A DNA stretch of 64,000 bases, taken from NCBI GenBank assembly GCA_038245295.1, contig JBBRSP010000006.1, positions 174,021 through 238,020 on the forward strand, given 5' to 3'. Position numbers and translations under genes: made by a program. Positions 29 through 51,968 of the stretch are shown here, piece after piece (the stretch's first letter is position 1; every line of letters starts with the position of its first letter). The notes beneath the pieces are model-generated. The model was not told where the DNA came from and made no database searches. It worked only from the letters and a program-made list of their open reading frames with translations. The DNA comes from Candidatus Binatia bacterium (GTDB taxonomy: Bacteria > Desulfobacterota > Binatia > HRBIN30).

Positions 29-940
29 TCATCGGGATGGTGAGGGCAATAGCCGCGCATCGGGCGGACCTTTGCCCCTTGTGCTGCGGACGTTTTCTCC
101 CGGCGTCCCTTCCTTACTGTAGGGAAGTCCGGCGAGCTCTCGTAAGGAATGCGGCACCGCGCTCGCGGCCGCTCGCCAGATCGCTCCCGTGGGGTCGCTC
201 GTCACATCGTGCAGCGAGGCAAACCACACCGGGAGGGACGCGCGCACGTGAGCCACTCGCGCCCGGTAGCGTTCAAGCCAGACGGGATCGTGTCCAACGA
301 CGAGGACGATTTCCGGTGTGTCGCTCGGCTGCCAGTGGCTCGCCGTATAGCCGTATACCTTCTTCAAGAACCGCTGCGGTGTTCTCGTCTGATGTTCGAC
401 CTCGAGAGCGAACGTTGCGTGGACCTGATCGTCCCAGCCTACATCGAAGTGCGCGTCGGGAACGATTCGTCGAAGGCGCGGCGTGCGCAGTTCCCAGTCA
501 GACCGCCACGACAGGATCGCTCCGCCGGTTGCATCGAGCCCCCGCGCCAGGTGCACGCGGACCGTGTTGATCGCGAGGAGGTGCTCCAGGTTTCGGTCGA
601 GGCCCCGTGGGACGCGGTAGCGCTCATCGGCCGCTCCTTCATTTGCGAGAACCAGTCGTCCCGAGTTCGCTAGACTATAGACGTTGTCTCCCGAGAGGCT
701 GCGTACCCACACGCGCACAAGGCCTGCGTTGAGCAATCGGCGCAGGCACTTGTTCGTCGCGGATCGCGTGCCGAAGCACATGGTCTGGATCTGCGTCGTT
801 GTGAGGAAGCGCATCTTCGCCAGTGCTTCGAGGAGCCACTGATCACGATCGGTCAGGCGCACACGCGCCGCGTTTGCTCGCTTGAGTGTGCGGCGAGTGC
901 GGCAGCACTTTGACAGCAAAGCAATCGGTGTCTCGATCAT
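29..940 (-). CDS. Replication-relaxation family protein (wHTH N-terminus). ATG at 940 overlaps the stop of the upstream Zn-ribbon gene (ATGA). A longer alternative start lies at 985.
   Basis: N-terminal motif LTDRDQWLLEALAKMRFLTTTQIQTMCF...NKCLRRLLNAGLV is typical of the Replic_Relax family of actinobacterial plasmids/ICEs. It is the last gene of a coupled minus-strand operon. Confidence 0.6.
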   Translation of the reverse strand: MIETPIALLSKCCRTRRTLKRANAARVRLTDRDQWLLEALAKMRFLTTTQIQTMCFGTRSATNKCLRRLLNAGLVRVWVRSLSGDNVYSLANSGRLVLANEGAADERYRVPRGLDRNLEHLLAINTVRVHLARGLDATGGAILSWRSDWELRTPRLRRIVPDAHFDVGWDDQVHATFALEVEHQTRTPQRFLKKVYGYTASHWQPSDTPEIVLVVGHDPVWLERYRARVAHVRASLPVWFASLHDVTSDPTGAIWRAAASAVPHSLRELAGLPYSKEGTPGENVRSTRGKGPPDARLLPSPSR

Positions 941-1260
941 ACGCTCTGCACCGGGTTCTTGAGACCAACCCCGCATACCTGGCACGGAATGAAGGGCGGA
1001 GCGGCGCCGCAGACGGCGCAGCGCGTGAACGCAAAGCCATCAAACACGTATCGACAACGCCCGCATTCGAAACGACCGACCAGACTAACTGGCGAACCGC
1101 ATCCGAAGCAGGGCAACGCGTCCCGACGGGTCAGCACAACCGCGCCAGCGAGTTGCTTGGTCCAGCGGTAAAGACGACTCGCCACGCCGAATGGTAGCAG
1201 CACCGCCCAAAGGGCGAGCCGGATGGTCAGCAAGAGCGAGCGGAACATCAGATCTTCCAT
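937..1260 (-). CDS. Small membrane-anchored double zinc-ribbon protein (107 aa)
   Basis: Internal start MEDLMF at 1260-1258 overlaps the ATPase stop (TGATG). One TM helix is followed by four CxxC pairs (CFGCG, CGRC, CAVCG, CQVCG). Confidence 0.45.
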   Translation of the reverse strand: MEDLMFRSLLLTIRLALWAVLLPFGVASRLYRWTKQLAGAVVLTRRDALPCFGCGSPVSLVGRFECGRCRYVFDGFAFTRCAVCGAAPPFIPCQVCGVGLKNPVQSV

Positions 1261-2867
1261 CAGCCGAGTCGTGGCCTTCCCCGCCGAGTTGGCGGAACGG
1301 GCTCTTGAGACACGACGACGATCGGCGGCCGAACAAGTTCCCGGAGGCGAGCTTTCCGCGCGGTGAGTTGGCGACGCAACACTTCTCTCGGGACGGCGAA
1401 ACCGCCGTGGTCGATCCCCTGTTCCCTGATGAACGCGTCGAGCCGGTTCGCGGAGATCCCGATCCGCTCGTGTGGGGGCACGAAGTCCGCGACTCGAACT
1501 TGGACTGCACGGTATGGTTTGCGACGATCGTACCAGTAGCACATGCGGTTCGGCAGCCGCTGTAGTTTCTCCATCAAGTGACGGCGCATTTCGCTGCGAC
1601 TGGGAACCTCCCCTGAGCGGCGCAGGGCGCTTCCCACCATTTCCGGGTCGACGTCGGGAAGGAAGTCACCGAAGAATTCGGCGTTCCGCCCCGACGTCCG
1701 AAACAGCGCCATGAGGTCGCAGTTCGCAAGCATCGTCTCCCGGAGCGCCGGCGGCACTTGCGAGAAGTTGTGCATGACGAGTGCCAGGTGCACACCGAAG
1801 CTCCGAAGCGTCGTGAGTGCCGTCGCGAAGCGGTCGGCCAGCGCCGGGGCGGCGAGCAGGTGGAAGAATTCATCGAGGACGACGAGGTACGGACGATGTT
1901 TGCCTTCCGAGGCATAGGCCGCCTGGAACAACAGCTGAAGCAGCAGGCTGCCGAGCAAAGCCACCACCTCTTCTGGAATGCCGGCACCTTTGCCGAGAAA
2001 TACGAGCAAAGGATCACCTCGTGAGATGACGTCGCTCAGATCGATGAGATCGTCCGCCCCGAGCATGAGGCGGACGTTCTCGGCGAGCAGCAATGCCTGC
2101 AGCCGAGCGGTGAGCGCATGCTTCGACGTCTCCGGGAGAATCGCGTACGTCCGAAAGAAGAACTCCTTCAGGCGTTGGTCCGCCGACCGCTCGACGAGCA
2201 CACCGCGCAGCACGTCATCTTCCAGGACGGCAGGCGCCTCGACGAGCGACAGACCGGCCTCGGTGAGGAGCATCACCAAGTGACGGAGGATGTTCTCCAT
2301 ATGAATACTAAGCGAGGCCTCAAAGAGACGCGCGAATGCCAGGGTGACGTCGTAGGCCTGCACTTCGGCCGTCGATCCGGATGGTACCCGGCAGATGTTC
2401 AAAGGCGGCAGCGCATCGCTGAATGGGTTGATGATCGCGAGTCGCTCAATGAAGGTGGTGCGATCCCCTGGGTTCATCTCCCACGCGATTGCGGCAGCTG
2501 ACTGCAACACCATGTGAAAGAATCCCGACTTGCAATCGACGACGCCGATCGGTCGTCGTACCGAGAGTGCCCAGTCGACGCACGACGTAACGAAGGTCGT
2601 CTTGCCAGTACCGGTCCCACCCTGAACGAGCCAGTGCGCGGCGAAATCATCCGGGCTGAGTCGTAGACGCACCATTTTACCGGCCGCGTCGCCCGCCGTG
2701 CCAATCTGCAGCGCAAGCTCTTTATCCTGACTAGTTGTAACAAAAGCGTCGTAGTCACCGACGGCTTCGCGAAACACCCGGGCGCTCGCCCTTGCCACCT
2801 CGGCTCGTGCCTTCTGGCGATCACGCGCATGGCCGCGCGCGACTTGAATCCAACGCTCAAGTGCCAT
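1260..2867 (-). CDS. FtsK/HerA/TraD (VirD4)-superfamily P-loop ATPase, type IV coupling-protein-like
   Basis: Walker A GGTGTGKTT, Walker B LVVLDEFFH and a VVDCKSGF motif resembling T4CP DPKG. Paralogous to the 37685-38950 ORF. Confidence 0.6.
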   Translation of the reverse strand: MALERWIQVARGHARDRQKARAEVARASARVFREAVGDYDAFVTTSQDKELALQIGTAGDAAGKMVRLRLSPDDFAAHWLVQGGTGTGKTTFVTSCVDWALSVRRPIGVVDCKSGFFHMVLQSAAAIAWEMNPGDRTTFIERLAIINPFSDALPPLNICRVPSGSTAEVQAYDVTLAFARLFEASLSIHMENILRHLVMLLTEAGLSLVEAPAVLEDDVLRGVLVERSADQRLKEFFFRTYAILPETSKHALTARLQALLLAENVRLMLGADDLIDLSDVISRGDPLLVFLGKGAGIPEEVVALLGSLLLQLLFQAAYASEGKHRPYLVVLDEFFHLLAAPALADRFATALTTLRSFGVHLALVMHNFSQVPPALRETMLANCDLMALFRTSGRNAEFFGDFLPDVDPEMVGSALRRSGEVPSRSEMRRHLMEKLQRLPNRMCYWYDRRKPYRAVQVRVADFVPPHERIGISANRLDAFIREQGIDHGGFAVPREVLRRQLTARKARLRELVRPPIVVVSQEPVPPTRRGRPRLG

Positions 2868-2875
2868 CTCGATCC

Positions 2876-3166
2876 TCAGTGGTCGCGCTGCTCATGTCGC
2901 CGTTCGGCAATCCCCGCCGGCCGACGCACCGGTGGAATGCGGAGCGGCTGTTCATCCTCGATCTCCACATGCCCATGCCGCCGTATGGTCATCCCCGCAC
3001 CCAGGCATACCGCTACGATTCCCACGAGCAAGAGCCACGGCAGCACGACACTGATGACTAGAACGATTGCCTGGAAGGCGCAGCACATGAGCGGCTGCAC
3101 GATGAGCAGCGCCACCACAAGCTCGACCAGCGTGTCCATCGATGCCCGGCCGCGCTCATCGTTCAT
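2876..3166 (-). CDS. Small hydrophobic membrane protein (96 aa)
   Basis: Two predicted TM segments. Its start ATG overlaps the JAB-E1 stop (ATGA). Confidence 0.45.
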   Translation of the reverse strand: MNDERGRASMDTLVELVVALLIVQPLMCCAFQAIVLVISVVLPWLLLVGIVAVCLGAGMTIRRHGHVEIEDEQPLRIPPVRRPAGIAERRHEQRDH

Positions 3167-4605
3167 CCGGAGGCGCCTTCCGCGTGGCCGACATCATCCA
3201 GACCAGGGATGACCGGTGGTAACTCACTCCTGCTCATGCGGTTCGGGCGCCAGGTCGGAACAAGATCACCCAGACCCAGCCGTCCTTCTGCGCTGCAGTG
3301 CAAACACCCCTTTGTTTCCGGCACGGTGATTGAGAAGATCTCCCCTTCGAGTTCGCGATAGACGAGGTACGGCCGCGGGTTCCGGTAGGGGGCGACGAGG
3401 TTGTGCAGCTCTGCCACAGCAAGCGAGGCCACCACACCGTTTAGGTGGTACACCGCGGGCGCAGCTACTCCGGTCAAGTATCCGCGTTGCGTCAGAAGCG
3501 CCCGCTCCTCTGGTCGTGCCAGATCTTGTGCTGCACGCGTCGCGTCAAGCACACCTGCGCAGAGCAGGCACCACGCTCCCAGGGGCGGCACCACGACTTC
3601 GCCGCTGATATCGTCAAAGCGTCCGTCGTCGCCCACGCTGAGGTTGACCCCAGCGTGCAGAATCGGAATCAGATATTGCGCGGCCAAGGCGTTGAGCACG
3701 AGACGGGAAGCATCGTTGTCCGTGGCAGCGATCAAGACATCGCAACCACTGAGCGCCCTGAGCGAGCGCTCCGTGAACACGGTACAACGCAGCGCCTTGA
3801 TTTCCGCATCGTCGTCGATGCTGCGAATGTTTCGCGCCGCCACATCGACCTTGGCGATTTCTTCGGTCGCATCGGAGAGCGTGGTCGCGAGCAGTCGATT
3901 GAGGTTGCTGACTTCGACAATGTCCGGATCGACCAGCACCCAATCCCGCACCCCGAGTCGGGTGAGCTCCTCAACAATGACACTGCCAATGCCACCCACG
4001 CCGACAATTCCCACGCGCAGCGCTCGCATCCGCGCCTGAAACCCTCTCCCAAAAGCGCCGATCTGCCGATCGAACCGAGCGGCGTCGACCGCTGACAAGC
4101 CCGCATCCCCATCGAACATCAGCATCGCTCCATCGAAGGACGGCGACGGAATTCGAACCGGCCTCGCTTCGTCATCGCGCACCTCCCAAATGCGTGTGGC
4201 TGTGCTCGATGGATTGACGACGACCGAACCGTAAACCGTTTCAGGCAGGCGCTCCGCGAGGTAGGCAGCCATTACGAGTTCGTTTTGATCATCGATACAC
4301 GAGAAATCGACGTGCGGGCCGTCACCGGGGTGCGAGTGGAAGTCGACCTGCGACAAACCCTCTTGGGCGGCCAGTTGCAGGACGTGCTGCTGCACCTCGG
4401 GTCGCAGGGTCAGACCGCCCGCCGATTGATGACTGAATGCCTCAGGCGGCATGAGTACGAGGTGACGTCCCAGAAGCCTCAGTTGTGTGCCTGTGCGGTG
4501 CAGGCCGCAGAGTACGATAGCCATTTGCTCACGCTCTCGATCGTGGAGCAGGTGCGTGCGGAGTTCTCCTCCCATGGTTGGTGGAAGGACGATTCGATAG
4601 TTCAT
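3163..4605 (-). CDS. JAB/MPN(JAMM) deubiquitinase-like domain fused to E1-like ThiF/MoeB adenylyltransferase domain
   Basis: The N-terminus has a JAMM-like motif EG...FHSHPGDGPHVDFSCIDD. The central region has the ThiF Rossmann motif GIVGVGGIGS...VLVDPDIVEVSNLNRL. C-terminal CxxC pairs (CLLCAG, CLHCSAEG) are present. Start MNYRIV at 4605 is 11 nt after the E2 stop. Confidence 0.75.
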   Translation of the reverse strand: MNYRIVLPPTMGGELRTHLLHDREREQMAIVLCGLHRTGTQLRLLGRHLVLMPPEAFSHQSAGGLTLRPEVQQHVLQLAAQEGLSQVDFHSHPGDGPHVDFSCIDDQNELVMAAYLAERLPETVYGSVVVNPSSTATRIWEVRDDEARPVRIPSPSFDGAMLMFDGDAGLSAVDAARFDRQIGAFGRGFQARMRALRVGIVGVGGIGSVIVEELTRLGVRDWVLVDPDIVEVSNLNRLLATTLSDATEEIAKVDVAARNIRSIDDDAEIKALRCTVFTERSLRALSGCDVLIAATDNDASRLVLNALAAQYLIPILHAGVNLSVGDDGRFDDISGEVVVPPLGAWCLLCAGVLDATRAAQDLARPEERALLTQRGYLTGVAAPAVYHLNGVVASLAVAELHNLVAPYRNPRPYLVYRELEGEIFSITVPETKGCLHCSAEGRLGLGDLVPTWRPNRMSRSELPPVIPGLDDVGHAEGASG

Positions 4606-4616
4606 GACGGATGTCC

Positions 4617-5168
4617 TCAATTGTCGTTGGTCAACACGTCGCGCACGAGCGACAAGAAGGTCCACAGATTGTCGGAATCGCGGAAGTCGGCCGATGGCTG
4701 CCAACCGCCATCGTCAGGAGCCTTCGGCCAGACGCAATACCAGTGCCAACCTGCTGCCAGAAGATCGGGCGCACCATGAAATGCGGAGCTGGTGAGATGT
4801 GGATCACCCCCGCCGTCGGCCAGAGGAAATTTCCTGTCGAGATAGAAACCGAGTGGCGGTGAGATCGGGTAGGTCTGTGGGAACACGACTAAGAGCTGCG
4901 CCCAGCGGTGCTGCCAGCGTTCCGGGAGCGCGAACTGTTGGATGCGAAGCCAATCGCCGTTCGCTTCGTCGAAGTCGACGCCACCGCGATCGCTGAAACG
5001 CGGCGCGATCATCAGGACCTCGTTCTGAATGCGCGTTGTGCGATCGTCGAACCCCGAGGGGCCAACGGCAGCCCGGCGCGCTGGCGCTCTGTCGGGCGTC
5101 ACGTCGATCGCCGTATCATGGCCGTCTGGTATGAACAGTGCCTCAAGGACTCGGACGAATGTGCTCAT
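4617..5168 (-). CDS. E2/UBC-like ubiquitin-conjugating enzyme homolog
   Basis: UBC-like FPQTYPISPPLGFYLD motif (compare eukaryotic FPxxYPFxPPxxxF). A candidate catalytic Cys sits in WHWYCVWP. The gene lies between the Ubl and JAB-E1 genes, and the Ubl stop overlaps its ATG. Confidence 0.55.
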   Translation of the reverse strand: MSTFVRVLEALFIPDGHDTAIDVTPDRAPARRAAVGPSGFDDRTTRIQNEVLMIAPRFSDRGGVDFDEANGDWLRIQQFALPERWQHRWAQLLVVFPQTYPISPPLGFYLDRKFPLADGGGDPHLTSSAFHGAPDLLAAGWHWYCVWPKAPDDGGWQPSADFRDSDNLWTFLSLVRDVLTNDN

Positions 5169-5392
5169 GAAAACCTCCCCCTGGCCTGCCCTTTGACCCG
5201 CGCCGGCGCATCGAGAAATACGTCCCCGTCGTTGATCGGAACTCTGCTGCCCTTCGGGATCATGAAGTTGCCTTCTCGCGTTCGGCGCATGAGATTGCGC
5301 TTGCCGTCGATGTTGCCGATCCGACGGATATCCGCATCGGAGGCTGACTCCGGCAAATTCACCTGACGACCGTTGATGATTGCTGCTGCCAT
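5165..5392 (-). CDS. ThiS/MoaD-like beta-grasp ubiquitin-like protein (75 aa), no C-terminal Gly-Gly
   Basis: MAAAIINGRQVNLPESASDADI...IPKGSRVPINDGDVFLDAP fits the ThiS/MoaD pattern. A GGGAGA RBS lies 7 nt upstream of the ATG. It is the first gene of the coupled operon. Confidence 0.5.
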   Translation of the reverse strand: MAAAIINGRQVNLPESASDADIRRIGNIDGKRNLMRRTREGNFMIPKGSRVPINDGDVFLDAPARVKGQARGRFS

Positions 5393-5788
5393 TTTGTGTT
5401 CTCCCTTTTTGTGTTGTGCTGCTGTTGAAGGACTATCGGTTCCGCCCGCGGCGCTTCGGCGCGCCGCCGAAGAGTTGCTTGGCAACCTCATGGCCCAGCC
5501 CGCCAAGCTGTCGCGTCGCTTCGCCCTTGAAGCCTCGCAGTTGCCACTCGGCCTCGCGGCCAAAGCCGCGGAGCTGCCGACTCGCTTCACGACGGATTTG
5601 GCGAACGAGCCCGCTCCGTCTGTCATCGCCTCGCTTTGCCATTCTTGTCCTCCTCTCTTGTTTTTTGATCGGTCATGGCTCGCGTCGAAGCGCCGTACAG
5701 AACGCCTCACGTGTGACCGGATCCTAGAGCGGATTGAGAAAAGGGGTACGGTAACGACGGGGCTACGGAGAGGGATACTGAGGATAGG

Positions 5789-6658
5789 TCAAACGACCGC
5801 GAGGACGCGGCAGATTTGGCGAACGACGTCGGTGGCAATCGCGCTTTGGGCGTGCAGCAACTGGGACTCGGAGAAAGGGTAAGAGCTGGCCCACAGGACT
5901 TCTTGTTTCTTTGTGTCGGTCAACTCGACGTCGAGTCGAGCGACATCACCGTGCGCGCGAAGGATACCGATGAGCACGGCACAGACTTCGTCGGCGCGAA
6001 CGTCGCGCTGTCGGTTCTCAGCTTTACTGTGAGCTGCAATCTCGAGAACAGTGGCCAGATCCGCAGAAACAACTCGCAGTCCGCGGACGCTGGAAAGCTG
6101 CGCGAGAATGGTCGCACGAAAGCCGCCGGCCAAATCTGCGCCGAGTCGTTCACCTGTGGCCGCTTGGAATGCAGGCATGAGTAGACAGTGGTTGAACGAG
6201 ACGCCAGCCGACTCGGCCCGCACGAGCTCGCGCCAGTCCACTCGCCACCCGACCCGCACGCTCAACACGTCGGCAAGTTTTACCAGCGAGCCACTCGTCG
6301 CTCGACCCCCGCTGCGCCACTTCTTGATCGTGCCTTCCGAAAGAAGCCGGCTCTCGAGCGCCAGTCCAGGTTCGTAGAGGTCGATGATTTTCAAGCCGGC
6401 CTGTCGGCAGAGCGTCTTGAGCTTGGGGTAGTCAACGGAGTAGCCGCGGCGATGCTCATCGTTTGCTGTTGTGGTGGCACGCGATATCGCGCGCCCTCCG
6501 CCGCTCTTACCTTGTCGTGGTCGTGAAGATCGGGCAAGACGTCGTGTAGCCGCTCCCACCACGGTGGTTACTGGCGATACCGGATCAGGAGCGACGAACC
6601 CTCGCGTTTCGTGCCGACGCTGCGCCGGCTCGGCTCCTTCTGATGCACGACGGTTCAT
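5789..6658 (-). CDS. HTH (XRE-like) domain protein with an R-rich N-terminus
   Basis: LKTLCRQAGLKIIDLYEPGLALESRLLSEGTIKKWRSGGRATSGSLVKLADVL resembles a Cro/C1 HTH. It lies upstream of the Ubl operon on the same strand. Confidence 0.4.
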   Translation of the reverse strand: MNRRASEGAEPAQRRHETRGFVAPDPVSPVTTVVGAATRRLARSSRPRQGKSGGGRAISRATTTANDEHRRGYSVDYPKLKTLCRQAGLKIIDLYEPGLALESRLLSEGTIKKWRSGGRATSGSLVKLADVLSVRVGWRVDWRELVRAESAGVSFNHCLLMPAFQAATGERLGADLAGGFRATILAQLSSVRGLRVVSADLATVLEIAAHSKAENRQRDVRADEVCAVLIGILRAHGDVARLDVELTDTKKQEVLWASSYPFSESQLLHAQSAIATDVVRQICRVLAVV

Positions 6659-7743
6659 TGCCTGGCCTCCTTCCGAGGGCGAGTACTTTGACGGCGAGAC
6701 GTTTGTCTCCTCGTGGAGGATTTTGGGGTCTTTCCTCTAGGTGACGAGACAGGGGCGATATGAGGGGCCTTCGGAACATCGCCAACGTCTGGAACCGCGG
6801 CGATTTCATCTATGCTCGACGGCGGTAGCAAGGTGACCTCTTCCTTAATGCCAGGACGCAGCCGTTCGGCGAGTTGCAACCTGCGGCGAAACCATATGCG
6901 GTAGTCGGCTGACGACGCTCGCGGTATCGCGTCCACGCCACTCGCGACGAGCCACCCGTGGGCAGCTGCGAGTGTGGCATTGAACTCCTCGATCAGTCCG
7001 TCGACCGGATCGTGTCGATCCAGCGGAAAGCCGCTCGTCTCGATTTCTTGCAGCAGCTCATCGCCAATCGGCAACAGGCGGTGAGTTGCGAATTGGACGA
7101 ACCGGAGGGGCTCACCCACGGCGTGTGGGAGCAAGTATGAAACGAGTCGGAAATTCGCGTCGACAGCGTGCGGGACTTCACCTAGCGCGAGCGCTGTCAG
7201 ATAGTGGTAGCGACGACATTCGTTCCACAGGAGAAACGCATAGGCGGCCTGCTCGTTCGGCAAGAGCCCTTGAATTAGTACGCCAGCCGCCGCCAACCGA
7301 AGAGCGGATTGGAGGTGGCGATCCAGTTGATCGCTGTACGCGACGACAACGATCCTTCTCTCCGGAAAAAACAGGGCGCCCATGCGCTCGGCTTCCTTTA
7401 GCGATCGCACAATTAGTTTGGATGGACCCATCCACGTCCACAAGCGATAGCGGCGATCACGGGTTTCAAAGAGGAGCGGAAGGTAGCGCACCTTCCGCGT
7501 CGAGCGCTGTTCGAGACGTCGCTCCTGTCGCAGAGCCTCTAGGCCGATCTTTCCGCCACCGTGAGCGCGGACAAATTCCGACCGGTAGACTTTCTTGTAC
7601 GCCGCCGAGTGACGCCGTCCCAAGCCGCGTTTAGTCACAAGCCTCTTCCTCTTCCTCTTCTCACCGCTTTCTGTTGATACCGGTCGGCGCGCTTCACGGG
7701 GTGAGGCGGGCGGTGGGTTATGTTTGTTGTCGTCCATCGTCAT
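6655..7743 (-). CDS. Hypothetical protein (362 aa)
   Basis: Long ORF with a 4-nt overlap to the downstream gene. No recognisable motif. Confidence 0.35.
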   Translation of the reverse strand: MTMDDNKHNPPPASPREARRPVSTESGEKRKRKRLVTKRGLGRRHSAAYKKVYRSEFVRAHGGGKIGLEALRQERRLEQRSTRKVRYLPLLFETRDRRYRLWTWMGPSKLIVRSLKEAERMGALFFPERRIVVVAYSDQLDRHLQSALRLAAAGVLIQGLLPNEQAAYAFLLWNECRRYHYLTALALGEVPHAVDANFRLVSYLLPHAVGEPLRFVQFATHRLLPIGDELLQEIETSGFPLDRHDPVDGLIEEFNATLAAAHGWLVASGVDAIPRASSADYRIWFRRRLQLAERLRPGIKEEVTLLPPSSIDEIAAVPDVGDVPKAPHIAPVSSPRGKTPKSSTRRQTSRRQSTRPRKEARQ

Positions 7744-7921: not shown

Positions 7922-8464
7922 TCACCTCCGCGATGCAGGGTGTCGTATGGGGAGGGAATGGTTGCCGTCAGCTGAATAGTAGTAAGTAAGGGCGAAAGAG
8001 ACGGCATCGAAAATCGCCATCCGTTGGTCCTCGCTCATCCAGAGCTTGCGAATCGGCGGCACCGATACCGCTAAGGCAGGGAGATGTTCCGCAACGGTGC
8101 GGGCCATCCGGTCTTTGTTCGGTCGCTCTTCCCCTTTGAACATCTCGCGGACTTCCCGCGCCGAGACGATGTGAAGGTCAAGGCCAAGGTGGATGACGAG
8201 CCGCGAGATTCCTCGAATCAAGGCACGCGCGCGTCGTCGACGCCGACAGCTTGAGTCCGCGCAATTCTCAACGATGACGATGTCCGGTTGGTACTGCTGA
8301 ATGAGCTGGGTCACCTTCTGGAGTGCCACTCGTCGCGTACCACCACGGCTTCGACTCAGACCCCAATCTACAAGGTCACCCGGGCCTTCAAGGATTGCAT
8401 ACCCAAAACCACGCGAGAACGGATCCACCCCTAAGACCCGGCGCGTCATGCGCTCGCGTCTCAT
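7922..8464 (-). CDS. RuvC/YqgF-like RNase H-fold resolvase-like protein
   Basis: VLGVDPFSRGFGYAILEG...PDIVIVEN resembles the RuvC N-terminal motif (LGIDPG...G.A). Its start overlaps the upstream HTH gene stop. Confidence 0.45.
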   Translation of the reverse strand: MRRERMTRRVLGVDPFSRGFGYAILEGPGDLVDWGLSRSRGGTRRVALQKVTQLIQQYQPDIVIVENCADSSCRRRRRARALIRGISRLVIHLGLDLHIVSAREVREMFKGEERPNKDRMARTVAEHLPALAVSVPPIRKLWMSEDQRMAIFDAVSFALTYYYSADGNHSLPIRHPASRR

Positions 8465-8826
8465 ACCGATGCATCGTTATCGGTCTGATGCGCTCCTGCT
8501 GCGTTGGCGATCGCCGAAAGCGTCTCCAGTTTGCGCTGGTGTAGCGGACCGCCATGGCTGGTGGACAGACGTTGCACGAGCGCGTGCACACGTTGAATGA
8601 CGTCGCTCGTGGCCCGCTCATGTGCGCCCGCAAAGAGCCGCTCCAGCGGTAGACGAAAAATGATGGCGCACGCAAACATCGTGGCGACGTTTGGGTGGCG
8701 TACGAATCGCTCGTAGCGCGATACTTTGCTGCCATGTTGGCAGCCGAGCAGGAAGGAAACCTCAGCCTGAGACAGGCCTGCCTCCCTCCGCGCTGCCCGA
8801 ATGTAGTTCGGGAGCTTCTGAGGCAT
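8461..8826 (-). CDS. XRE-family HTH transcriptional regulator
   Basis: AARREAGLSQAEVSFLLGCQHGSKVSRYERFVRHPNVATMFA is an HTH_XRE pattern. Confidence 0.6.
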   Translation of the reverse strand: MPQKLPNYIRAARREAGLSQAEVSFLLGCQHGSKVSRYERFVRHPNVATMFACAIIFRLPLERLFAGAHERATSDVIQRVHALVQRLSTSHGGPLHQRKLETLSAIANAAGAHQTDNDASV

Positions 8827-8999: not shown

Positions 9000-9941
9000 T
9001 TAGTTGAGCGCCGCAGTCAGGAGCGATCCGCCGAAGCGTTCCATCTCGATGCGTCGCAGCGGTGCCAATGTTTGGGCCGCTCCGGTAAAGGCGTTGATGA
9101 TCCCGAACCGATTCGCCTCGGGGTCGCCAATGTAGCGTGCCATGATTTCATCGGTGAGCTTCTGGCTCATCTTGCGCTCTTCGGCGATATTCCGGATGAC
9201 GTCGAACGGATCAGCGATGGGCTCCTCCCTGGTCTTCAGGAATGCGTCGAGCACCTGGCTTGCTACCACGAAGCCGTCGCCAATCGCCTCGGCCATGCGG
9301 CGGGTGAGTTCGTTTGCCGTGAAGTGGATGTGCGCGTGCCGAAAGGCTTTCTCCTCGGCCACCACCAGGTCGTTCGTGCATGCTTTGCGGAACACGAACG
9401 GCTCGACCGACACGCTTCCCATGCCGACCTCGGAATTGCCAATCATGATGCCAGCCTTCAGGCCACTGGTGGGCTCGACCAACTCCTCGGAGACGATCTT
9501 TAAGAAGCAGTGGGTCTCTTCGAGCACAAACGACTTGATCCGAAGGGTGTCGCTTCTGAGCAGCTCTTCCACCGTCTCGGCGATCTGCCGGTTGTCGAAA
9601 GCGACGTACTCGCCGGAGAGGAAGGCGCGCACGTGAGCGGCTTTGCCGCGCAAGAGAAAAGCTCGTTCACTCATTCGTGAGAAGTCGAAGTTCGCTACCT
9701 TGGCTCTCATGTCGTTCGGCAGCCGCCGGTAGTACGCCACCGGGATACTGAGGCGTTCGCACATTTGACTCGTTGCGAGATCCGAGAGCGTCAAAGATTC
9801 CGGCGCAGGTCCTCCATTCTTCGCCAAGAGATCGCCGCGCTCACCGATCCAGAGCTGCGGGGTGGGCATCTTGCGATCCCATTTTCCGACGTCGTCAGCG
9901 GAGATCCGCGTGGCAACGTCATTCCAGGTTACTCGGTCCAT
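9000..9941 (-). CDS. DUF932-like phage/plasmid-associated protein
   Basis: Start MDRVTWNDV at 9941, with a perfect AAGGAGG RBS 7 nt upstream. The overall pattern (LTLSDLATSQMCERLSIPVAYY...) resembles DUF932 proteins of ICEs. Confidence 0.45.
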   Translation of the reverse strand: MDRVTWNDVATRISADDVGKWDRKMPTPQLWIGERGDLLAKNGGPAPESLTLSDLATSQMCERLSIPVAYYRRLPNDMRAKVANFDFSRMSERAFLLRGKAAHVRAFLSGEYVAFDNRQIAETVEELLRSDTLRIKSFVLEETHCFLKIVSEELVEPTSGLKAGIMIGNSEVGMGSVSVEPFVFRKACTNDLVVAEEKAFRHAHIHFTANELTRRMAEAIGDGFVVASQVLDAFLKTREEPIADPFDVIRNIAEERKMSQKLTDEIMARYIGDPEANRFGIINAFTGAAQTLAPLRRIEMERFGGSLLTAALN

Positions 9942-10263
9942 TGTTCTTTCCTCCTTTATTTGAACGATCTGGAGGGAAGCGTACGGCGAACGATGGATGC
10001 GTTGAAGAATGGTCCTTTTGCCGCTCGGGATCATGCCGCTTCTCTTGGCAAGTGAGGAGGTTGAGACACGAAGAGACAGGGAATTCTCGGCTGCTCACTT
10101 GTTGTCCTGTTGAACGGACATCCGCGTCTGAACCGTCCGCCTGGGCAGACAAGCCGTGCTGCGCCCTTGTCCATCAAACAATAACCGCCACCGAACTACA
10201 CAGGCGTAATTCTTGCTTCTAACGGAAGTCAAATTCTGGCTCGAATTAAAGGGGGCAAATTAA

Positions 10264-11070: not shown

Positions 11071-11100
11071 AAGTCACCCAAAGTCACCTAACGTCACCTG
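11071..11100. repeat. Three GTCACC motifs phased at 10 bp. Right arm of the inverted iteron pair. Overlaps the last codons of the helicase-like gene.
   Basis: AAGTCACCCAAAGTCACCTAACGTCACCTG. A GGTGGCCACC palindrome at about 11043 lies between the arms. Confidence 0.7.
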
Positions 11101-12438
11101 GTCGTCAGTTGGTGCTCGCTGCTCCGCGCCTTCGGCCAGGCCGTACTTCTCGCGCAGGCGCTGGAGCTTTGGGAAGTCTTCGAGGGCGATGACGTAGCTT
11201 CCTTGAACTCGTTGCGGCTTGAGACCAAGGCGCTTTCGTAGAATGCCGCCGATCCACTTGTTCGTCACCTTGCGCTCGTATTCGTCACCAAAGCGTTCCG
11301 TAAACTCGGTCGTGATCTCTTTGACAGAAAGACGCGACTCGGCGCTGAGAAGCAACAGTTCATTGATGACGTCGACCACTTGCGCCTCGGTGCTCATCCC
11401 TCGCTCGGAAACGGTATCGTGCTGATAGCGGTGCGCGAGCTCCGTGATTTCCAGACGAACGGCCGCATCGTCGATGATGCTGAGCAAAGGCACGAAGACC
11501 TGATTGAGACGCGGTTCGAGGCTCCGGTCGACGAACGCTTCGTTCGGACGGCATCGGGGTAAAGTCCGGAAACGGAACAGCAGGAGCTTGTTCCGCAGCG
11601 CACGTGCTTCATTCTCAAATGCTTCGGGAAGGCTGATCGGAATGTCCTCGCGCAACGGACGTTGCCCCATGTCTTCGGTCAGGCAGCGACTCTCAAGAGC
11701 GTTGTCTTCAAAGAAGCCGCGGGTAGCGATAATCTTCGGCCCAAACACCGCATAGGCGCGCGGGTTGAATTCGCCCTTGCCGTTCGCCTCGCTCCTGAGC
11801 ACGGGGAAGCCCCGGCCGTTCCCGTTGTTGAGGATCTTGACGACTTCAGCCTTCGCGTCGGTCTGGCGCCAATCGCTCTCGTCGACGACGAGAGTGCCGC
11901 GAAAGGTGTCGATCAGCCGAAAGATTGGCGAGACGGTTGAGGCGCCACTGGCGAAGATTGGTTTGTAGCAGAGCGATCCGACGGTCAGGAGAAACCGGCT
12001 TTTGCCGCTGCCGGCGTCACCGCGGACGCGAAGGTATGGCAGCTCGTTGAACCGATCGTAGACCCACGTGAAGAGGATGTAGTAGCTCGCGATCTGTTCA
12101 TAGATCGGGCTCAGATCAACGTAGCGATGCAGAAACGCCTGGAGTTCGTGGATCAAGTCAGACTCTGCACCGTACTCCTCGGGCGCAGACGGAAACATCA
12201 CGACGCGATGTTTCACGAGGTTGTTGCTGGCGGCGTAGGGCACGAGAGTCTCGGAGGCACTGAGTTCAACGCGGGGCTGTTCGTGCCACGTGCCGTCGTT
12301 CCACACGGCGAAGGACGTCGAGACCTTCTCAGGGTCGTAGACCATTTCCACGACTCGCCCATCGGCAAGCACCGCAGATACGGCCGGGACGCCGCGCGAG
12401 GTGGTCGGCTCTTGTTTGTCAAGCTGCTTCTCGTCCAT
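11074..12438 (-). CDS. P-loop NTPase, putative replicative helicase-like protein of the element
   Basis: Walker A RGDAGSGKSRFL and Walker B-like TLVVDESDW. Lies immediately downstream of the TOPRIM/zf-CHC2 primase gene and overlaps it. Confidence 0.5.
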   Translation of the reverse strand: MDEKQLDKQEPTTSRGVPAVSAVLADGRVVEMVYDPEKVSTSFAVWNDGTWHEQPRVELSASETLVPYAASNNLVKHRVVMFPSAPEEYGAESDLIHELQAFLHRYVDLSPIYEQIASYYILFTWVYDRFNELPYLRVRGDAGSGKSRFLLTVGSLCYKPIFASGASTVSPIFRLIDTFRGTLVVDESDWRQTDAKAEVVKILNNGNGRGFPVLRSEANGKGEFNPRAYAVFGPKIIATRGFFEDNALESRCLTEDMGQRPLREDIPISLPEAFENEARALRNKLLLFRFRTLPRCRPNEAFVDRSLEPRLNQVFVPLLSIIDDAAVRLEITELAHRYQHDTVSERGMSTEAQVVDVINELLLLSAESRLSVKEITTEFTERFGDEYERKVTNKWIGGILRKRLGLKPQRVQGSYVIALEDFPKLQRLREKYGLAEGAEQRAPTDDQVTLGDFG

Positions 12439-13498
12439 CGGTTTGAGAGTGAAGGTTTTCCAAAAACTCAAGCGCTTTCAGGAACGGTAACCGCTCGACG
12501 GCGATCACGAACGTGATCACGTCACCGTACCGGCCGCAGCCGTAGCAGCGGAACCGACCGGCCTCGGGGTACACCATGAGCGAGGGGTAGTGGTCTTCGT
12601 GGAAGGGGCACCGGCCACGCAGACTCGCGCCGGACGGGCGCAGTTGGATGTAGCGCTCGATCAGATCGCCAATGGGAACCGCCGCCTTTACGTCAGCAAC
12701 GCGACGACTCACTTCGTTGAAGGGACGCGAAAGACCAGACGACGGTATCACCGGTAGGGTCACGGGAAGCACGGGTACCGGCGTCGCTCGCTCAAGGAGC
12801 CCGAGAAAGTCTTCGCGCGTGTGTTGAAGTCGCACGAAGAAGTCGGTGATGTCACCGGCCGGACCCACCTCGTCGGGTAACTGGACGATTTTTGCATGTG
12901 GCAGGAATTGGCCGACGCGCAGCGCTCCAGCCCGGCCGGCGCCGTCGAGATCAAAGCAGAGGTAGATCTCCGGAATTGGTGCGAGATCATCAACCCACTC
13001 GGTACGGAGGGTACCCGCGCCACCGGTCGACGTCACGGCCGCGAAGCCGTGCGACTCCAAGACCAGTCGATCGAACTCGCCTTCGCAAATGATGAGGCGG
13101 CACGGTTTCGCGAGCACACGCTCCCAACCGTAGAGTTCTACTGACCCGCCGCGCGACGTCAGCATTTTTGGATCGTCGTTGCTGCCTTCCGGATCCCTCG
13201 CCAGTTTGAAGCAAACCACTTCGTCCAAGCGGTTGCGGATCGGAATCGTAATGCGCCGACCGTTCCAACCGAGCTGATGGAGTGTGATCACCTCGTCCGC
13301 GATACCGCGCGCCACAAGATACGTGCGAATGCGGTCGGGCAGCGCTTCGTGGTACCGAATGGCTTGGGCGCGAAGGTCGTCATGCATGATTCGCACGGTA
13401 CGACAGTCTACTACGTGGCCGAAGGCGGCGCGGTATGGCGACAACGGCAAGTCGGCCAGTCTTCGGTGCATTGAGGACGACGCGTAGGATGGACGCAT
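12419..13498 (-). CDS. Primase-like protein with a TOPRIM domain followed by a C-terminal CHC2 zinc finger
   Basis: TOPRIM motifs LIICEGEFD and CFDLDGAGR are mid-protein. The zf-CHC2 motif CPFHEDHYPSLMVYPEAGRFRCYGCGRYGDVITF is at the C-terminus. Confidence 0.6.
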   Translation of the reverse strand: MRPSYASSSMHRRLADLPLSPYRAAFGHVVDCRTVRIMHDDLRAQAIRYHEALPDRIRTYLVARGIADEVITLHQLGWNGRRITIPIRNRLDEVVCFKLARDPEGSNDDPKMLTSRGGSVELYGWERVLAKPCRLIICEGEFDRLVLESHGFAAVTSTGGAGTLRTEWVDDLAPIPEIYLCFDLDGAGRAGALRVGQFLPHAKIVQLPDEVGPAGDITDFFVRLQHTREDFLGLLERATPVPVLPVTLPVIPSSGLSRPFNEVSRRVADVKAAVPIGDLIERYIQLRPSGASLRGRCPFHEDHYPSLMVYPEAGRFRCYGCGRYGDVITFVIAVERLPFLKALEFLENLHSQTDGREAA

Positions 13499-13668: not shown

Positions 13669-13896
13669 ATGGCGGTTGAACGACGCGAACTGACTTCGCT
13701 CCGTCATCTCCTCACCCTAGGAGAGGTGGCGGAGTTTCTGCGCATCTCAAAAACCAGCGTCTATCGGCTCGTCGATCGGCGCGAACTTTCCTGCTGCCGT
13801 GTCGGTCGCAGCCTCAGGTTCACGATCCACGATGTAGATACCTACTTGCGTAGTCAACGCATCGGACCAACTGCCGCTGATCAAGACAACCTATGA
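13669..13896 (+). CDS. xis: Excisionase-family HTH DNA-binding protein
   Basis: LLTLGEVAEFLRISKTSVYRLVDRRELSCCRVGRSLRF matches the excisionase/AlpA-type HTH. Overlaps the integrase start by 4 nt. Confidence 0.6.
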   Translation: MAVERRELTSLRHLLTLGEVAEFLRISKTSVYRLVDRRELSCCRVGRSLRFTIHDVDTYLRSQRIGPTAADQDNL

Positions 13897-15080
13897 GCGC
13901 ACGGAAAATAGGACACTCCTGGTGGGTGGATTTCCGACACGCTCACCAGAGAATTAGAAAACGAAGTCCAGACAACAGTCGCGCTGGCGCTGCGGTATTC
14001 GAGGCGACGCTGCGCGGTCGCTTGGCTCGCGGAGAACCGCTGTTTCCAGCGGTGCACCGACCCCAGCCAAAGCCGCGCTTCGAAGTGTTCGCCTGGCACT
14101 GGTACGACGTCTATGTGAAGACCAACAACAAGCCGTCCGAGCAGCGGACGAAGCGAATAGTCCTCCGAAGGCACCTCGTACCGTGTTTTGGGAAGTCCGC
14201 TCTCGACGCGATCACGGCGCTCCACATCGAGCAATTCAAGGCGTCGCAACTTAAGTCGGGCCTTGCCCCAAAGACTGTCAACAACTCCCTAGCGATCCTT
14301 GGAAAATGCCTTCGAACCGCAGAAGAATGGGGCGAGGTTGTTCGCATGCCCAAGATCAAGCCGTTGCAGGTGCCGCCGCAGAAGTTCGACTTCCTGTCGG
14401 TCGAAGAAGCGAATCGGCTCATCCGCGCAGGGAACGATCCTCAGTGGCGAGCGATGGTCGTAGTCGCACTTCGAACCGGTCTCCGGCTCGGCGAGCTACT
14501 CGCGCTCGATTGGACAGATATCGATCTGGAAGCCTCGAGACTCACGGTACGGCGGTCGGTCTTCGGGAACCAGTTCGTTTCGCCGAAGAGCAACCGCATC
14601 CGGCACATTCCGCTCACAGATCAGACGCTACGGGTGCTCTGCGCGATCAAACAACCGGCCGGTCTTGTTTTCAAGCGCCGCGGTCCCGGACCTCTGAATC
14701 GTAAGACCCCAGCAAGAGTGATTTCGCTCCTTTGCACCGCAGCGGGCATTCGCCAAATCGGATGGCACGTCCTCCGACATACATTCGCCAGTCACCTGGC
14801 GATGGGCGGCGTTAGCATGAAGGCAATTCAGGAACTGCTTGGCCATTCAGACATTCGAACGACGATGCGCTACGCCCATCTGACTCCATCGATACTGCAG
14901 GACGCAGTGCGCGTTCTCGAGTCCGAGCCGACGCCAGCGGACACGCTTGTTGGGCAACCGGCGGGCAACGCTTTTGTAGCCGCCGTGGAGGACAAACAAA
15001 AACACCCCAGTATACGGGGCGTTTCTGCGGAATTTGTTGGCTCGGGAGGTGGGATTCGAAACGCCGGGCACGACGTTTGA
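13893..15080 (+). CDS. int: Tyrosine site-specific integrase
   Basis: C-terminal catalytic motifs HVLRHTFASHLAMGGVSMKAIQELLGHSDIRTTMRYAHL (R...HxxR...Y). Core-binding N-terminal domain present. Confidence 0.85.
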   Translation: MSARKIGHSWWVDFRHAHQRIRKRSPDNSRAGAAVFEATLRGRLARGEPLFPAVHRPQPKPRFEVFAWHWYDVYVKTNNKPSEQRTKRIVLRRHLVPCFGKSALDAITALHIEQFKASQLKSGLAPKTVNNSLAILGKCLRTAEEWGEVVRMPKIKPLQVPPQKFDFLSVEEANRLIRAGNDPQWRAMVVVALRTGLRLGELLALDWTDIDLEASRLTVRRSVFGNQFVSPKSNRIRHIPLTDQTLRVLCAIKQPAGLVFKRRGPGPLNRKTPARVISLLCTAAGIRQIGWHVLRHTFASHLAMGGVSMKAIQELLGHSDIRTTMRYAHLTPSILQDAVRVLESEPTPADTLVGQPAGNAFVAAVEDKQKHPSIRGVSAEFVGSGGGIRNAGHDV

Positions 15081-18260: not shown

Positions 18261-18345
18261 AATTGTGAGAGGTTGGTGACCGAAGCCCCGGTCTTCAGAA
18301 GTTTAGCGCTCATCTTTATTTCCCCCTGCGTGGTATTTCACACCT

Positions 18346-19386
18346 TTGAGCGCACTTCGTAAAGCGTTCTGGGGCAATCTCTCGAATCGGCAGCGGCCAG
18401 GGACTCTTGATGGTGATCGCATAGTCGGCAGTCCCGCATTGGCAACTGCCGCAAAGTCTCACCACCTGCCAAAAGATCAGCGCATAAAGCGATCTGTCGA
18501 GATCCAACGGTCCTTCTCACTGATCTCGCCTCGAGCGCCGAACCAGTCGAGTACCGTACTGATGAGATCCGCAGCGACAGTGGGCATCCATTGCACGACG
18601 ACGTCGAGCGTTTGCCGTAAGCGGATTCCGGATCAGCCCCTGCGTGAAAGGATCAGCGATCCTCGCTTCGCAGATTTTAACGAAGGCGCTAGGTGGGACT
18701 CGGTAGGAGGTGGCGTTTGCGTGGCAATGACTATTGAAGATGTCGAGCAACGTGCCGGTCGCGTTCTCAACGCGCAACTCCGAAACCCGAATCGCGATGT
18801 TCAGGACGCGATGTTTCGCGTGCTATGCGCCAGAGTCGTAAAATTTGGCAACGCTGCCAGCATGCTGCGATCAGCGGGATATGCTGAGCCAGCAATGGTA
18901 ATGTTGCGATGCATTTACGAGACCTATCTGTGGACTCGTTGGATTCTGATAGATCCGAAAAACGCGCAGCAATATTGGGATATCGGCAAGCGAGAAGCGG
19001 CCCGATTAACTGGAAAAATGGTTGGACAATACGAGATCAAGATCCGTGACTTTCCAAAGGACTCGCACGTACGCCAGGCCTATAGTGACCGCCAGGCGAA
19101 GAGTATCGACCTTCCTGATCCATCGCGCCTAGCTGCAACTGTGGGGGTGCAGCGCCTTCACGACGCCGTCTATCCGCTTCTCTCGTGGATGACACATGGG
19201 AACATTCTTTCGCTCGGCGAAGGCATGCTTGCGTCGACGAACGGCCAGTCTGTTCCGACGGGGGCAAGCGAGCTGAACGTCATGTTGTTCGACGTCATGG
19301 CGGCAAGAGTCGGTGAGGCATGCGTCGAAATCCTCGAGACCTGGTCCGAACGCCACGAGGTTGCACCGCCGTTCATTTGGAAATGA
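18346..19386 (+). CDS. Hypothetical protein. The true start is possibly the internal M near 18727.
   Basis: ORF only. No recognisable motif. Divergent from the PHP-ATPase gene. Confidence 0.3.
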   Translation: MSALRKAFWGNLSNRQRPGTLDGDRIVGSPALATAAKSHHLPKDQRIKRSVEIQRSFSLISPRAPNQSSTVLMRSAATVGIHCTTTSSVCRKRIPDQPLRERISDPRFADFNEGARWDSVGGGVCVAMTIEDVEQRAGRVLNAQLRNPNRDVQDAMFRVLCARVVKFGNAASMLRSAGYAEPAMVMLRCIYETYLWTRWILIDPKNAQQYWDIGKREAARLTGKMVGQYEIKIRDFPKDSHVRQAYSDRQAKSIDLPDPSRLAATVGVQRLHDAVYPLLSWMTHGNILSLGEGMLASTNGQSVPTGASELNVMLFDVMAARVGEACVEILETWSERHEVAPPFIWK

Positions 19387-35123: not shown

Positions 35124-35712
35124 CGGACTCGATTTGGCGCAGCCGCTCCGTGATTTCCTCGCGTTCCTCGGATCCCTGACCAAGCCGTTCTGCAGCTTCC
35201 GCAACCTTTAAAGCCTCGCGAAGATACCCTTCGTTCTGGTAAAGCCGAAGCAGATGGGAGAACGACAGAATCCCGAACTGGCGCACCACACCGTCGGCTT
35301 CGTAGGATACGGCCTCCGGAAGGGATTCGGCGAGGCTAATGTCGAGCCAGCAAAGGCGTTCGACTTCTACAAGAACTGAGGGTTCCTCTATCCTTCGCTT
35401 CCAGAGCTGATCGGCGACACCTTGGATCGCGAAGTGGTATTCACTCCCCGTTCCGGGCAGTTCGAGAACCTCGGACAGATGTCGGAGTAGTCCGACGGTT
35501 GATGCTTCCGAAGAGGAGTGCTGCGAAGCTGGAGACGCTGATGTCTTCCCGTTGCCGGTGAGCAGTGGCCAGCTCAAAGATTCCTCACGTTTGCCTTCCA
35601 TATCGAAGACGTGACGCTCCGGAACGGCATTCTGCCCTGGAAGCCTCCCAGTACGTGTCCCTTGATAGGTCACACCGGGAATGTCAGCGAAGCGTTTGAA
35701 CCACTGAGGCAT
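35110..35712 (-). CDS. Hypothetical protein (200 aa)
   Basis: ORF upstream of, and overlapping, the helicase start region. Confidence 0.3.
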   Translation of the reverse strand: MPQWFKRFADIPGVTYQGTRTGRLPGQNAVPERHVFDMEGKREESLSWPLLTGNGKTSASPASQHSSSEASTVGLLRHLSEVLELPGTGSEYHFAIQGVADQLWKRRIEEPSVLVEVERLCWLDISLAESLPEAVSYEADGVVRQFGILSFSHLLRLYQNEGYLREALKVAEAAERLGQGSEEREEITERLRQIESEDAG

Positions 35713-51954: not shown

Positions 51955-51968
51955 AGTTGACCCAGTCG
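51915..51968. repeat. ~54-bp repeat (copy C), direct to copy A and inverted to copy B. Spans the serine recombinase start codon.
   Basis: CTTCAGCGCTCGTGAGAATTGACCCACTTGCGCTCGGCAAAGTTGACCCAGTCG. Confidence 0.65.

Follow-up and report, generated by a model that had tools for sequence, protein, structure and literature searches.

A Bub-related ubiquitin-like conjugation cassette with a predicted cysteine E2 and no BubE heads the mobility operon of an integrative element in a Candidatus Binatia bacterium

Analysis of a 64,000-nt stretch of Candidatus Binatia bacterium DNA (assembly GCA_038245295.1, contig JBBRSP010000006.1, positions 174,021 to 238,020; hereafter the window, in whose numbering positions are given) showed that seven minus-strand genes between positions 29 and 5392 join a ubiquitin-like protein (Ubl), an E2 and a JAB(JAMM)-E1(ThiF) fusion to a set of DNA-transfer genes. 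Judged by sequence and by predicted fold, the Ubl/E2/JAB-E1 triad is a relative of the Type I Bub ("6E") operons. The region as a whole is the recombinase-proximal half of an integrative element of ~17 kb. The enzyme set is of a known kind (Bub), while its variant with a Cys-E2 and no BubE, and its wiring into a mobility operon, were not found in the searchable literature. We consider the chances about even that the triad is an accessory, self-contained Ubl module whose expression goes along with that of the transfer genes and whose targets are proteins of the host or of rival elements. It is read as self-contained because the same element backbone exists without it, and because elsewhere the triad sits beside CRISPR-Cas and NYN genes.

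The chain begins with the Ubl gene (5165-5392; 75 aa, a single beta-grasp domain of BubA type), which shares an ATGA overlap with the gene for the E2 (4617-5168; 183 aa, UBC fold, BubB family, Pfam Prok-E2_E). A gap of 11 nt separates the E2 from the JAB-E1 fusion, a BubCD homologue (3163-4605; 480 aa from the ATG at 4605), and a second ATGA overlap leads into the gene for a small protein with two transmembrane (TM) helices (2876-3166; 96 aa, with a two-helix hydrophobic segment). After a further 8-nt gap comes a P-loop ATPase of the VirB4/VirD4(TrwB)/DptH/HerA branch of the FtsK-HerA superfamily (1260-2867; 535 aa). Its gene is joined by a TGATG overlap to that of a TM protein with a double Zn-ribbon (ZnR; 937-1260; 107 aa, four CxxC pairs), and an ATGA overlap connects the latter to the Replic_Relax gene (PF13814, MOBC relaxase family; 29-940; 303 aa). 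These coordinates and junctions, read from the sequence, bear out the first-pass annotation, which had described seven minus-strand genes in a chain, each overlapping the next at its start/stop codons (ATGA/TGATG) or lying 8-11 nt from it. A Shine-Dalgarno sequence, GGGAG, stands ahead of the Ubl start codon. A promoter and terminator scan of the operon gave results at chance level, with no prominent terminator-like site between the genes. The same gene string was found on many independent contigs at 40-76% protein identity, and the seven genes are therefore taken as real and not as chance open reading frames (ORFs).

The Ubl itself gave no match in Pfam, PADLOC or NCBIfam, its family profile produced only noise against the PDB, and Multi_ubiq was matched by just 2 of 20 family members, weakly. 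These sequence-only tests failed; the fold was settled by an AlphaFold2 model and a Foldseek search. The model (predicted local distance difference test score 85.5) is a beta-grasp, and its top matches were BubA and the Bub multi-ubiquitin proteins (9d59_A, 9cd2 and 9ea8_B; TMq 0.66-0.74), with ThiS, MoaD and ubiquitin ranking after BubA. Across 36 family sequences the C-terminus follows the pattern ...DAPxR[VI]KG with an invariant Gly; 18 of the 36 end exactly at this Gly, 15 carry tails of 1-13 residues, and three (from loci L119, L093 and L013) run on in frame into the E2, the arrangement of BubAB. In the window the motif is DAPARVKG, in which Gly68 (codon 5189-5191), the predicted mature end, is followed by a 7-aa tail, QARGRFS, that is presumably cut off by the JAB domain. 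The invariant Gly, together with the variable tails and E2 fusions, points to a conjugatable Ubl that would be matured by the neighbouring JAB domain. Maturation of this kind has been shown experimentally for BubCD and BubAB (Ye et al. 2024, PMC11601596).

The two enzymes could be related to Bub directly from their sequences. The E2, in which a YPxxPP motif and His124 are conserved, matched Prok-E2_E at 7.8e-7 (29.3 bits against a cut-off of 25). A profile built from 18 family members reached BubB of Citrobacter (9eae_C) at E 8e-6, and eukaryotic UBCs ranked behind it. For the JAB-E1 fusion, a phmmer search aligned residues 4-409 with residues 8-407 of BubCD (9ea4_A) at E 1e-38; ThiF was matched at 6e-35, and Prok-JAB at 6e-4, under the Pfam cut-off, though with the JAMM residues intact. 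Alignment of 19 JAB-E1 sequences showed that these residues (E26, H90, H92, S102 and D105) are invariant, as are the ATP loop (G202-G207), the adenylation Arg (R237, equivalent to BubCD R227), a CxxC...CxxC Zn site (C346/C349/C434/C437) and the crossover-loop Tyr376 (codon 3478-3480; RGYLTGV in the window, RGYITGV in BubCD). Tyr376 corresponds to BubCD Y370, the catalytic tyrosine of the Bub pathway (Ye et al. 2024, PMC11601596), and no Cys occurs in the crossover loop between C349 and Y376. Beyond the BubCD-aligned part, after the second CxxC, lies a further invariant motif, G-x-L-G-L-G-D-L-x-P-x-W (residues 441-452; window 3163-3300, minus strand), which is kept in both element-linked and CRISPR-linked clades. 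The Ubl, E2 and JAB-E1 assignments, first proposed from the letters and translations alone, thus hold under profile and structure comparison.

Where the triad departs from Bub is in the catalytic residue of the E2. Alignment placed Cys145 (codon 4734-4736, motif WHWYCVW) in the column of BubB Ser333, with W-S333-R-H335 of BubB set against W-Y-C-V-x, and Cys145 is accordingly the predicted catalytic residue. The residue at +2 is Trp, and the column of BubB D299 holds Leu; Cys at the catalytic column is ~94% conserved in the family. In the description of Bub by Ye et al. (2024, PMC11601596), BubE (DUF6527) is part of every operon, and BubB relies on Ser333 with His335. No product of the operon matched PF20137 (BubE, DUF6527) at E <= 0.1, and a jackhmmer search seeded with Conexibacter BubE over the ORFs of the fetched loci matched 22 loci, none of them in the window's clade. 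Ser-x-His occupied the catalytic column in 20/20 aligned loci with BubE, and Cys in 62/64 aligned loci without it; some loci in these counts duplicate one contig, but the partition is still clean. A search of the window E2 against 1.84 billion cluster representatives gave 206 clusters at E <= 1e-3, of which the best 150 had Cys in 133 and Ser in 8. In four representatives (P0285, P0294, P0296 and P0303), which are proteins of ~1,130 aa, the E2 domain is C-terminal. Together, the column and cluster counts indicate a sizeable sister lineage of Bub, defined here by sequence, with a Tyr-E1, a Cys-E2 and no BubE; no description of it was found in the searchable literature. Such a lineage offers a natural comparison for the use of the oxyester and the purpose of BubE. 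Because BubE, like the ZnR, combines a Cys4 cluster with a hydrophobic stretch at its extension, the ZnR was considered as a diverged BubE, and rejected: it gave no PF20137 signal and contains no His, so that it is not a BubE-like Ser-His protease.

The neighbourhood of the cassette was compared across relatives. A scan of genome contigs with the single JAB-E1 protein found no relative, whereas alignment-seeded scans recovered them and gave 80 genome loci and 44 metagenome loci. Among loci with JAB-E1 identity of at least 47% and at least 3 kb of downstream sequence, the ATPase and Replic_Relax genes lay downstream on the same strand in 13/13 non-redundant cases. The triad stood directly upstream of the core in all of them; three gene orders were seen, and BubE in none. 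At 42-47% identity (Anaerolineae/Chloroflexota) the triad occurs alone and the operon stops after the E1, and at 36% or less, 22 loci carry BubE and look like canonical Bub, for example in Conexibacter. Plasmid matches of the JAB-E1 were all at 34% identity or less, in the canonical Bub range. The close relatives all come from uncultured bacteria, such as Candidatus Binatia and Syntrophorhabdaceae metagenome-assembled genomes. In a neighbour-joining tree, itself only rough, the single-Ubl clade was monophyletic and the CRISPR-linked group was nested within the ATPase-linked ones.

The genes downstream of the triad have the character of a mobility module. Replic_Relax matched PF13814 at 1.1e-17 (65.2 bits against a cut-off of 25.3), with its PD and LE motifs conserved, and the NCBIfam model MobC_subf at only 0.007, far under its cut-off. 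PF13814 is the family that CONJscan calls MOBC relaxases (PMC5357655, Table 1), and its fold combines a winged helix-turn-helix with a PD-(D/E)xK nuclease of the restriction-endonuclease type (PMC3424549). The ATPase has a Walker A motif, GGTGTGKT (83-90), and a Walker B DE (332-333), and its fold matches VirB4, DptH, TrwB and HerA. TrwB_AAD_bind (19.8 bits, cut-off 20.5) and TraG-D_C (20.0 bits, cut-off 22) fell below threshold; in precomputed matches, many homologues carry these two domains and T4SS-DNA_transf. Against the PDB, the ATPase profile matched HerA and DotL over the P-loop only. The protein is a motor of the branch that holds VirB4, the type IV coupling proteins (T4CPs) and HerA, with no strict coupling-protein class assignable over VirB4, DptH or HerA. 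It also matched PADLOC HerA models and mad8 (2e-15); the mad8 lead was uninterpretable, as the text of the MADS preprint gives mad8 no domain assignment. No homologue of the ATPase was found among PLSDB plasmids or in IMG/VR.

Two small membrane proteins flank the ATPase in every related element. A hydropathy scan of the 96-aa protein, whose gene is translationally coupled to that of the ATPase, showed a hydrophobic two-helix segment at residues 8-63, approximately two TM helices, and a counterpart of 92-101 aa takes this place in triad-bearing and triad-less elements alike. We infer that it anchors the ATPase in the membrane, in the manner of the N-terminal TM domain of a coupling protein. 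The ZnR has an N-terminal TM helix (residues 4-28), four conserved CxxC pairs and no His, and is likewise kept directly after the ATPase whether or not the triad is present. The earlier reading of these four genes as a membrane protein, an FtsK/HerA/TraD-class ATPase, a membrane-anchored double Zn-ribbon and a replication-relaxation protein is upheld by profile, fold and hydropathy analysis. A second TrwB_AAD_bind ATPase occurs at window 37685-38950 on the plus strand (421 aa, 26% identical to the operon ATPase), with no Replic_Relax gene nearby.

L001, the Logan copy of the contig, reaches past the left edge of the window, and there the operon goes on into HTH_17 and then a tyrosine integrase. 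In at least 11 loci the gene after Replic_Relax is either HTH_17, with a tyrosine integrase behind it, or a serine recombinase, and host genes come next; in L132 and L139 the same edge layout ends at host genes. On the other side, the Ubl gene is directly preceded by a 69-aa ORF with REAxRQLRGF-like repeats (5433-5642, minus strand), which may open the operon or may belong to the backbone; it is kept at 47-67% in L002, L098, L132 and the triad-less L138, in the last of which it lies ahead of the ATPase. Two overlapping minus-strand genes of 289 aa and 362 aa (5789-7743) separate the cassette from a RuvC-like gene; neither had a match in Pfam, PADLOC or NCBIfam, or a homologue in any fetched locus. 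The element backbone consists of this RuvC-like gene (7922-8464), a helix-turn-helix (HTH) gene (8461-8826), DUF932 (9000-10034), a gene for a 465-aa protein (11074-12471) and a DnaG-type primase (12419-13498), all on the minus strand, and a second tyrosine integrase on the plus strand (13893-15080); the assignments are from Pfam.

From this layout, the seven genes occupy the recombinase-proximal half of the ~17-kb element, in agreement with the first-pass placement in an integrative element, and the conserved element core is made up of the 2-TM protein, the ATPase, the ZnR, Replic_Relax, an excisionase-like HTH and the integrase. The stretch may instead hold two adjacent elements. An integrase and HTH_17 pair apparently stands at each end, in inverted orientation (window 13893-15080, plus strand, and L001 15022-16392), and likewise in L139 (1-390 and 11880-13459). 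A phage or satellite origin, with an FtsK/HerA-type packaging ATPase, was considered and rejected, as there was no viral contig match and there were no structural genes.

Comparison with sibling elements showed that this backbone also occurs without the triad. In L139, the primase (60% identical to that in the window), 465-aa protein (72%), DUF932 (78%), HTH (55%) and RuvC-like (51%) proteins are all present, as are the ATPase (61%), ZnR (53%) and Replic_Relax (47%), followed by HTH_17, the integrase and host genes; the RuvC-like gene directly adjoins the TM-ATPase pair, with no triad between. L138 (ATPase 59%) also lacks the triad, and in L134-L137 the slot upstream of the TM-ATPase pair is filled by a multi-TM protein of 533-545 aa. 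The ATPase family is, overall, broader than the close JAB-E1 clade. As siblings have the same backbone without the triad, the mobility core can do without the Ubl pathway; with its position constant in the close relatives, the triad is an accessory cassette in a fixed slot. The slot protein (L134 8077-9714; L136 8115-9716) has 4-5 TM segments and, by eye, a C-terminal DxSxS-like motif suggestive of a von Willebrand factor A domain, and small VWA-annotated fragments lie at the slot position in L138. Upstream of the ATPase core, the triad-less L136 (4955-6334) and L137 (1462-2841) carry a pair resembling a diversity-generating retroelement (bAvd and a reverse transcriptase).

The triad was also found apart from the mobility genes. 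In the Anaerolineae/Chloroflexota loci L006, L014, L015, L018, L096, L112, L114 and L117, Cas6 and an NYN gene lie upstream of the triad (for example L006 7177-20768) and convergent type III CRISPR-Cas (RAMP) genes downstream, with no ATPase or relaxase. Altae-Tran et al. 2023 (PMC10910872) name NYN, ThiS, Prok-E2 and ThiF, in the legend to a figure, among putative auxiliary genes of CRISPR. An NYN-domain gene, a predicted RNase, also stands directly upstream of the Ubl in L088 (8594), L009 (8552), L010 (8416), L094 (1673) and L095 (4347), and in L045-L055; it spans mobile-element-linked loci and a more distant E2/E1 clade, but neither the window nor its closest relatives have it. The lineage has two recurrent homes, one in the fixed slot ahead of the ATPase/relaxase core of small integrative elements and one beside type III CRISPR-Cas, and both point to inter-element conflict or transfer control.

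By homology to Citrobacter Bub, whose biochemistry has been worked out, the JAB domain would trim the 7-residue tail to expose Gly68, which the E1 domain would adenylate before the Ubl is loaded onto the crossover-loop Tyr376 as an oxyester. The Ubl would then pass to Cys145 of the E2 as a thioester, not to a Ser, and would end, again as in Bub, on a lysine of a target protein. BubE being absent, the JAB domain would be left as the only deconjugase; these last two departures, the thioester and the single deconjugase, are our own proposals. Co-expressed with the transfer genes, the cassette would modify a protein during induction, transfer or establishment of the element. We think it more likely that this protein belongs to the host or to a rival element than that it is an obligatory component of the DNA-transfer machine.

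Several points weigh against this reading. To our knowledge, a relay from a Tyr oxyester to a Cys thioester has been demonstrated in no system. The locus sample comes from pattern-seeded scans and is not a full census, and the roughness of the tree noted above applies here as well. The ATPase cannot be placed among the T4CPs rather than the VirB4, DptH or HerA classes. No type IV secretion system (T4SS) genes were identified in the element as sequenced, and it is therefore probably mobilizable. Finally, a direct functional partnership with the ATPase complex would also explain the fixed slot upstream of the TM-ATPase pair, the translational coupling and the co-divergence.

That partnership is the basis of the strongest alternative, which we regard as unlikely though a real contender: the Ubl pathway would be a working part of the transfer apparatus, tagging a component of the ATPase complex, Replic_Relax or the small repeat protein, with the tag turning DNA processing or translocation on or off, or labelling the nucleoprotein as the ATPase's substrate. 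The position of the cassette, upstream of the TM-ATPase pair on the same strand in 13/13 loci through three gene orders, is what such a role would predict, as is its start/stop overlap with the next gene. Pairwise JAB-E1 distances co-vary with those of the ATPase (r 0.88) and of Replic_Relax (r 0.89; 66 pairs), the tree suggests that the linkage is ancestral for the clade, and in L088 the ATPase module has been swapped (26% identity) while the association with the triad was kept. Sibling elements with the same backbone, however, lack the cassette, which is thus dispensable for the core. Other relatives have an unrelated membrane protein in its slot, and a nested clade works with neither ATPase nor relaxase, beside CRISPR-Cas. 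The siblings and this clade also weaken the first-pass suggestion that stoichiometric co-expression would couple the Ubl machinery functionally to the transfer proteins. The 96-aa TM protein, moreover, contains no lysine.

A more specific version of a transfer role seems to us quite unlikely. The Cys-E2, BubE-less triad would here be a third Bub type that controls horizontal DNA transfer by tagging the ATPase/MOBC-nuclease machine or its nucleoprotein substrate, and the CRISPR-linked copies would be a later domestication. The covalent Tyr link by which DNA is normally piloted is missing in MOBC enzymes. If true, this version would bring ubiquitin-like modification into bacterial conjugation or mobilization for the first time.

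It is very unlikely that all seven genes form one anti-phage or anti-plasmid defence cargo, with the ATPase and the PD-(D/E)xK nuclease as effectors and the Ubl pathway as sensor or regulator. The PADLOC mad8 and HerA matches of the ATPase, the restriction-endonuclease fold of Replic_Relax and the defence links of the Bub, Bil and CBASS precedents would all suit such a cargo. The TM-ATPase-ZnR-Replic_Relax block, on the other hand, is constant in the family and adjoins the recombinase at the edge of the element whether the triad is there or not, as expected of a core mobility module and not of cargo; PF13814 is the MOBC relaxase family, and the homologues of the ATPase carry TrwB_AAD_bind, TraG-D_C and T4SS-DNA_transf. 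Hardly credible, lastly, is the view that the triad is of ThiS/ThiF type, serves as a sulfur carrier or in cofactor biosynthesis, and is no more than a neighbour of the mobility genes: partial NCBIfam ThiF/MoeB matches, all far under their cut-offs, and the ThiF/MoeB-type tetracysteine Zn site of the E1 speak for it, against a conserved E2 and JAB peptidase, no rhodanese domain, sulfurtransferase or ThiG/MoaE partner, no Cys in the crossover loop, a Ubl ending in KG whose tails or E2 fusions need proteolytic maturation, and best structural and sequence matches to Bub proteins.

On balance, an accessory Ubl module remains our preferred reading. Bub was biochemically defined only in 2024, and its authors report no phage protection so far (PMC11601596); the biological role of Bub pathways is still open. 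Natural siblings with and without the cassette make the role of a bacterial Ubl pathway for a mobile element directly testable.

Further along the window, the part from 15273 to 52395 has the mosaic look of mobile and defence genes, and GC rises from ~0.58 to 0.64 at ~52 kb. This part includes a 995-aa SMC_N/AAA_21 ATPase with DUF5677 (15273-19386), a 5-hydroxymethyldeoxyuridine (5-hmdU) DNA kinase (28621-29898), a ResIII helicase with a DUF559 nuclease (33042-35204), a SIR2_2-TPR protein (48066-50129) and a large serine recombinase (50272-52395).

Among known systems, PRTRC (ParB-related, ThiF-related cassette) occurs on plasmids and on integrative and conjugative elements (ICEs), and pairs a ThiF-like E1 with E2/JAB-like partners. 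One preprint mentions 'ParB/ThiF partitioning systems' of ICEs. The NCBIfam matches of the window E1 included no PRTRC model, and the operon differs in its partner genes and contains no ParB. Bil and CBASS Cap2/Cap3 resemble the window as bacterial E1/E2/JAB conjugation modules on mobile or defence islands. However, in Bil (BilABCD) the JAB is a gene of its own and the two-domain E1 bears a mobile Cys domain (IAD-AAD-CYS), whereas the window E1 is a single adenylation domain fused to JAB, with no Cys domain. CBASS Cap2 is an E2-E1 fusion that conjugates a cyclase, with no Ubl; in the window the E2 is a separate gene and the operon holds no cyclase. The PADLOC E1-E2 models matched only the Rossmann core of the window E1.

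The NYN/ThiS/Prok-E2/ThiF genes named in the CRISPR legend cited above (PMC10910872) match the nested Anaerolineae sister clade, with its order Cas6-NYN-Ubl-E2-JAB/E1. The window has no NYN, cas genes or CRISPR context, and has the ATPase/relaxase core instead. MOBC mobilization modules bring together a Replic_Relax-family relaxase and its own coupling ATPase, classically CloDF13 MobB/MobC and pAD1 TraX. They share with the window a Replic_Relax protein beside a membrane-associated TrwB/VirD4-like ATPase, with no T4SS of its own in the sequenced part, a likeness that is one of genes, the relaxase role being predicted. In the window, by contrast, a soluble ATPase has small TM proteins as separate partners, the integrative element carries tyrosine integrases, and a Ubl cassette heads the operon.

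The closest comparison is with Type I Bub (formerly 6E.1/DUF6527), which consists of BubAB, BubCD and BubE (Ye, Gong, Chambers and Corbett 2024, PMC11601596). The first-pass annotation had claimed a novel domain arrangement, and this was wrong, because a JAB-E1 fusion accompanied by an E2-like protein and a Ubl is found both in Type I Bub and in row 6e in Table 1 of Iyer, Burroughs and Aravind 2006 (PMC1779556). Its statement that known systems are not wired into a conjugation or replication operon fared better, in that no paper linking such a Ubl set to a coupling-ATPase/relaxase operon was found in the searchable literature. Type I Bub and the window share a full-length homologous JAB-E1 fusion with the JAB N-terminal, a crossover-loop Tyr with no Cys there, the adenylation Arg, an E2 of the Prok-E2_E family, a beta-grasp Ubl whose C-terminal Gly is predicted to need JAB maturation, and location on a mobile element. 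They differ in that Type I Bub has BubE and an E2 with catalytic Ser333/His335/Asp299, whereas the window operon is without BubE and its E2 has a Cys, the accompanying His and Asp not being conserved; because BubE and the Ser-E2 are missing, the locus is not filed as a Type I Bub member. The BubAB fusion of Type I Bub is represented by separate, overlapping Ubl and E2 genes, although some relatives are fused. Unlike Type I Bub, the window E1 keeps the CxxC...CxxC Zn site and has the extra conserved C-terminal motif, and the whole set is wired into an ATPase/relaxase operon.

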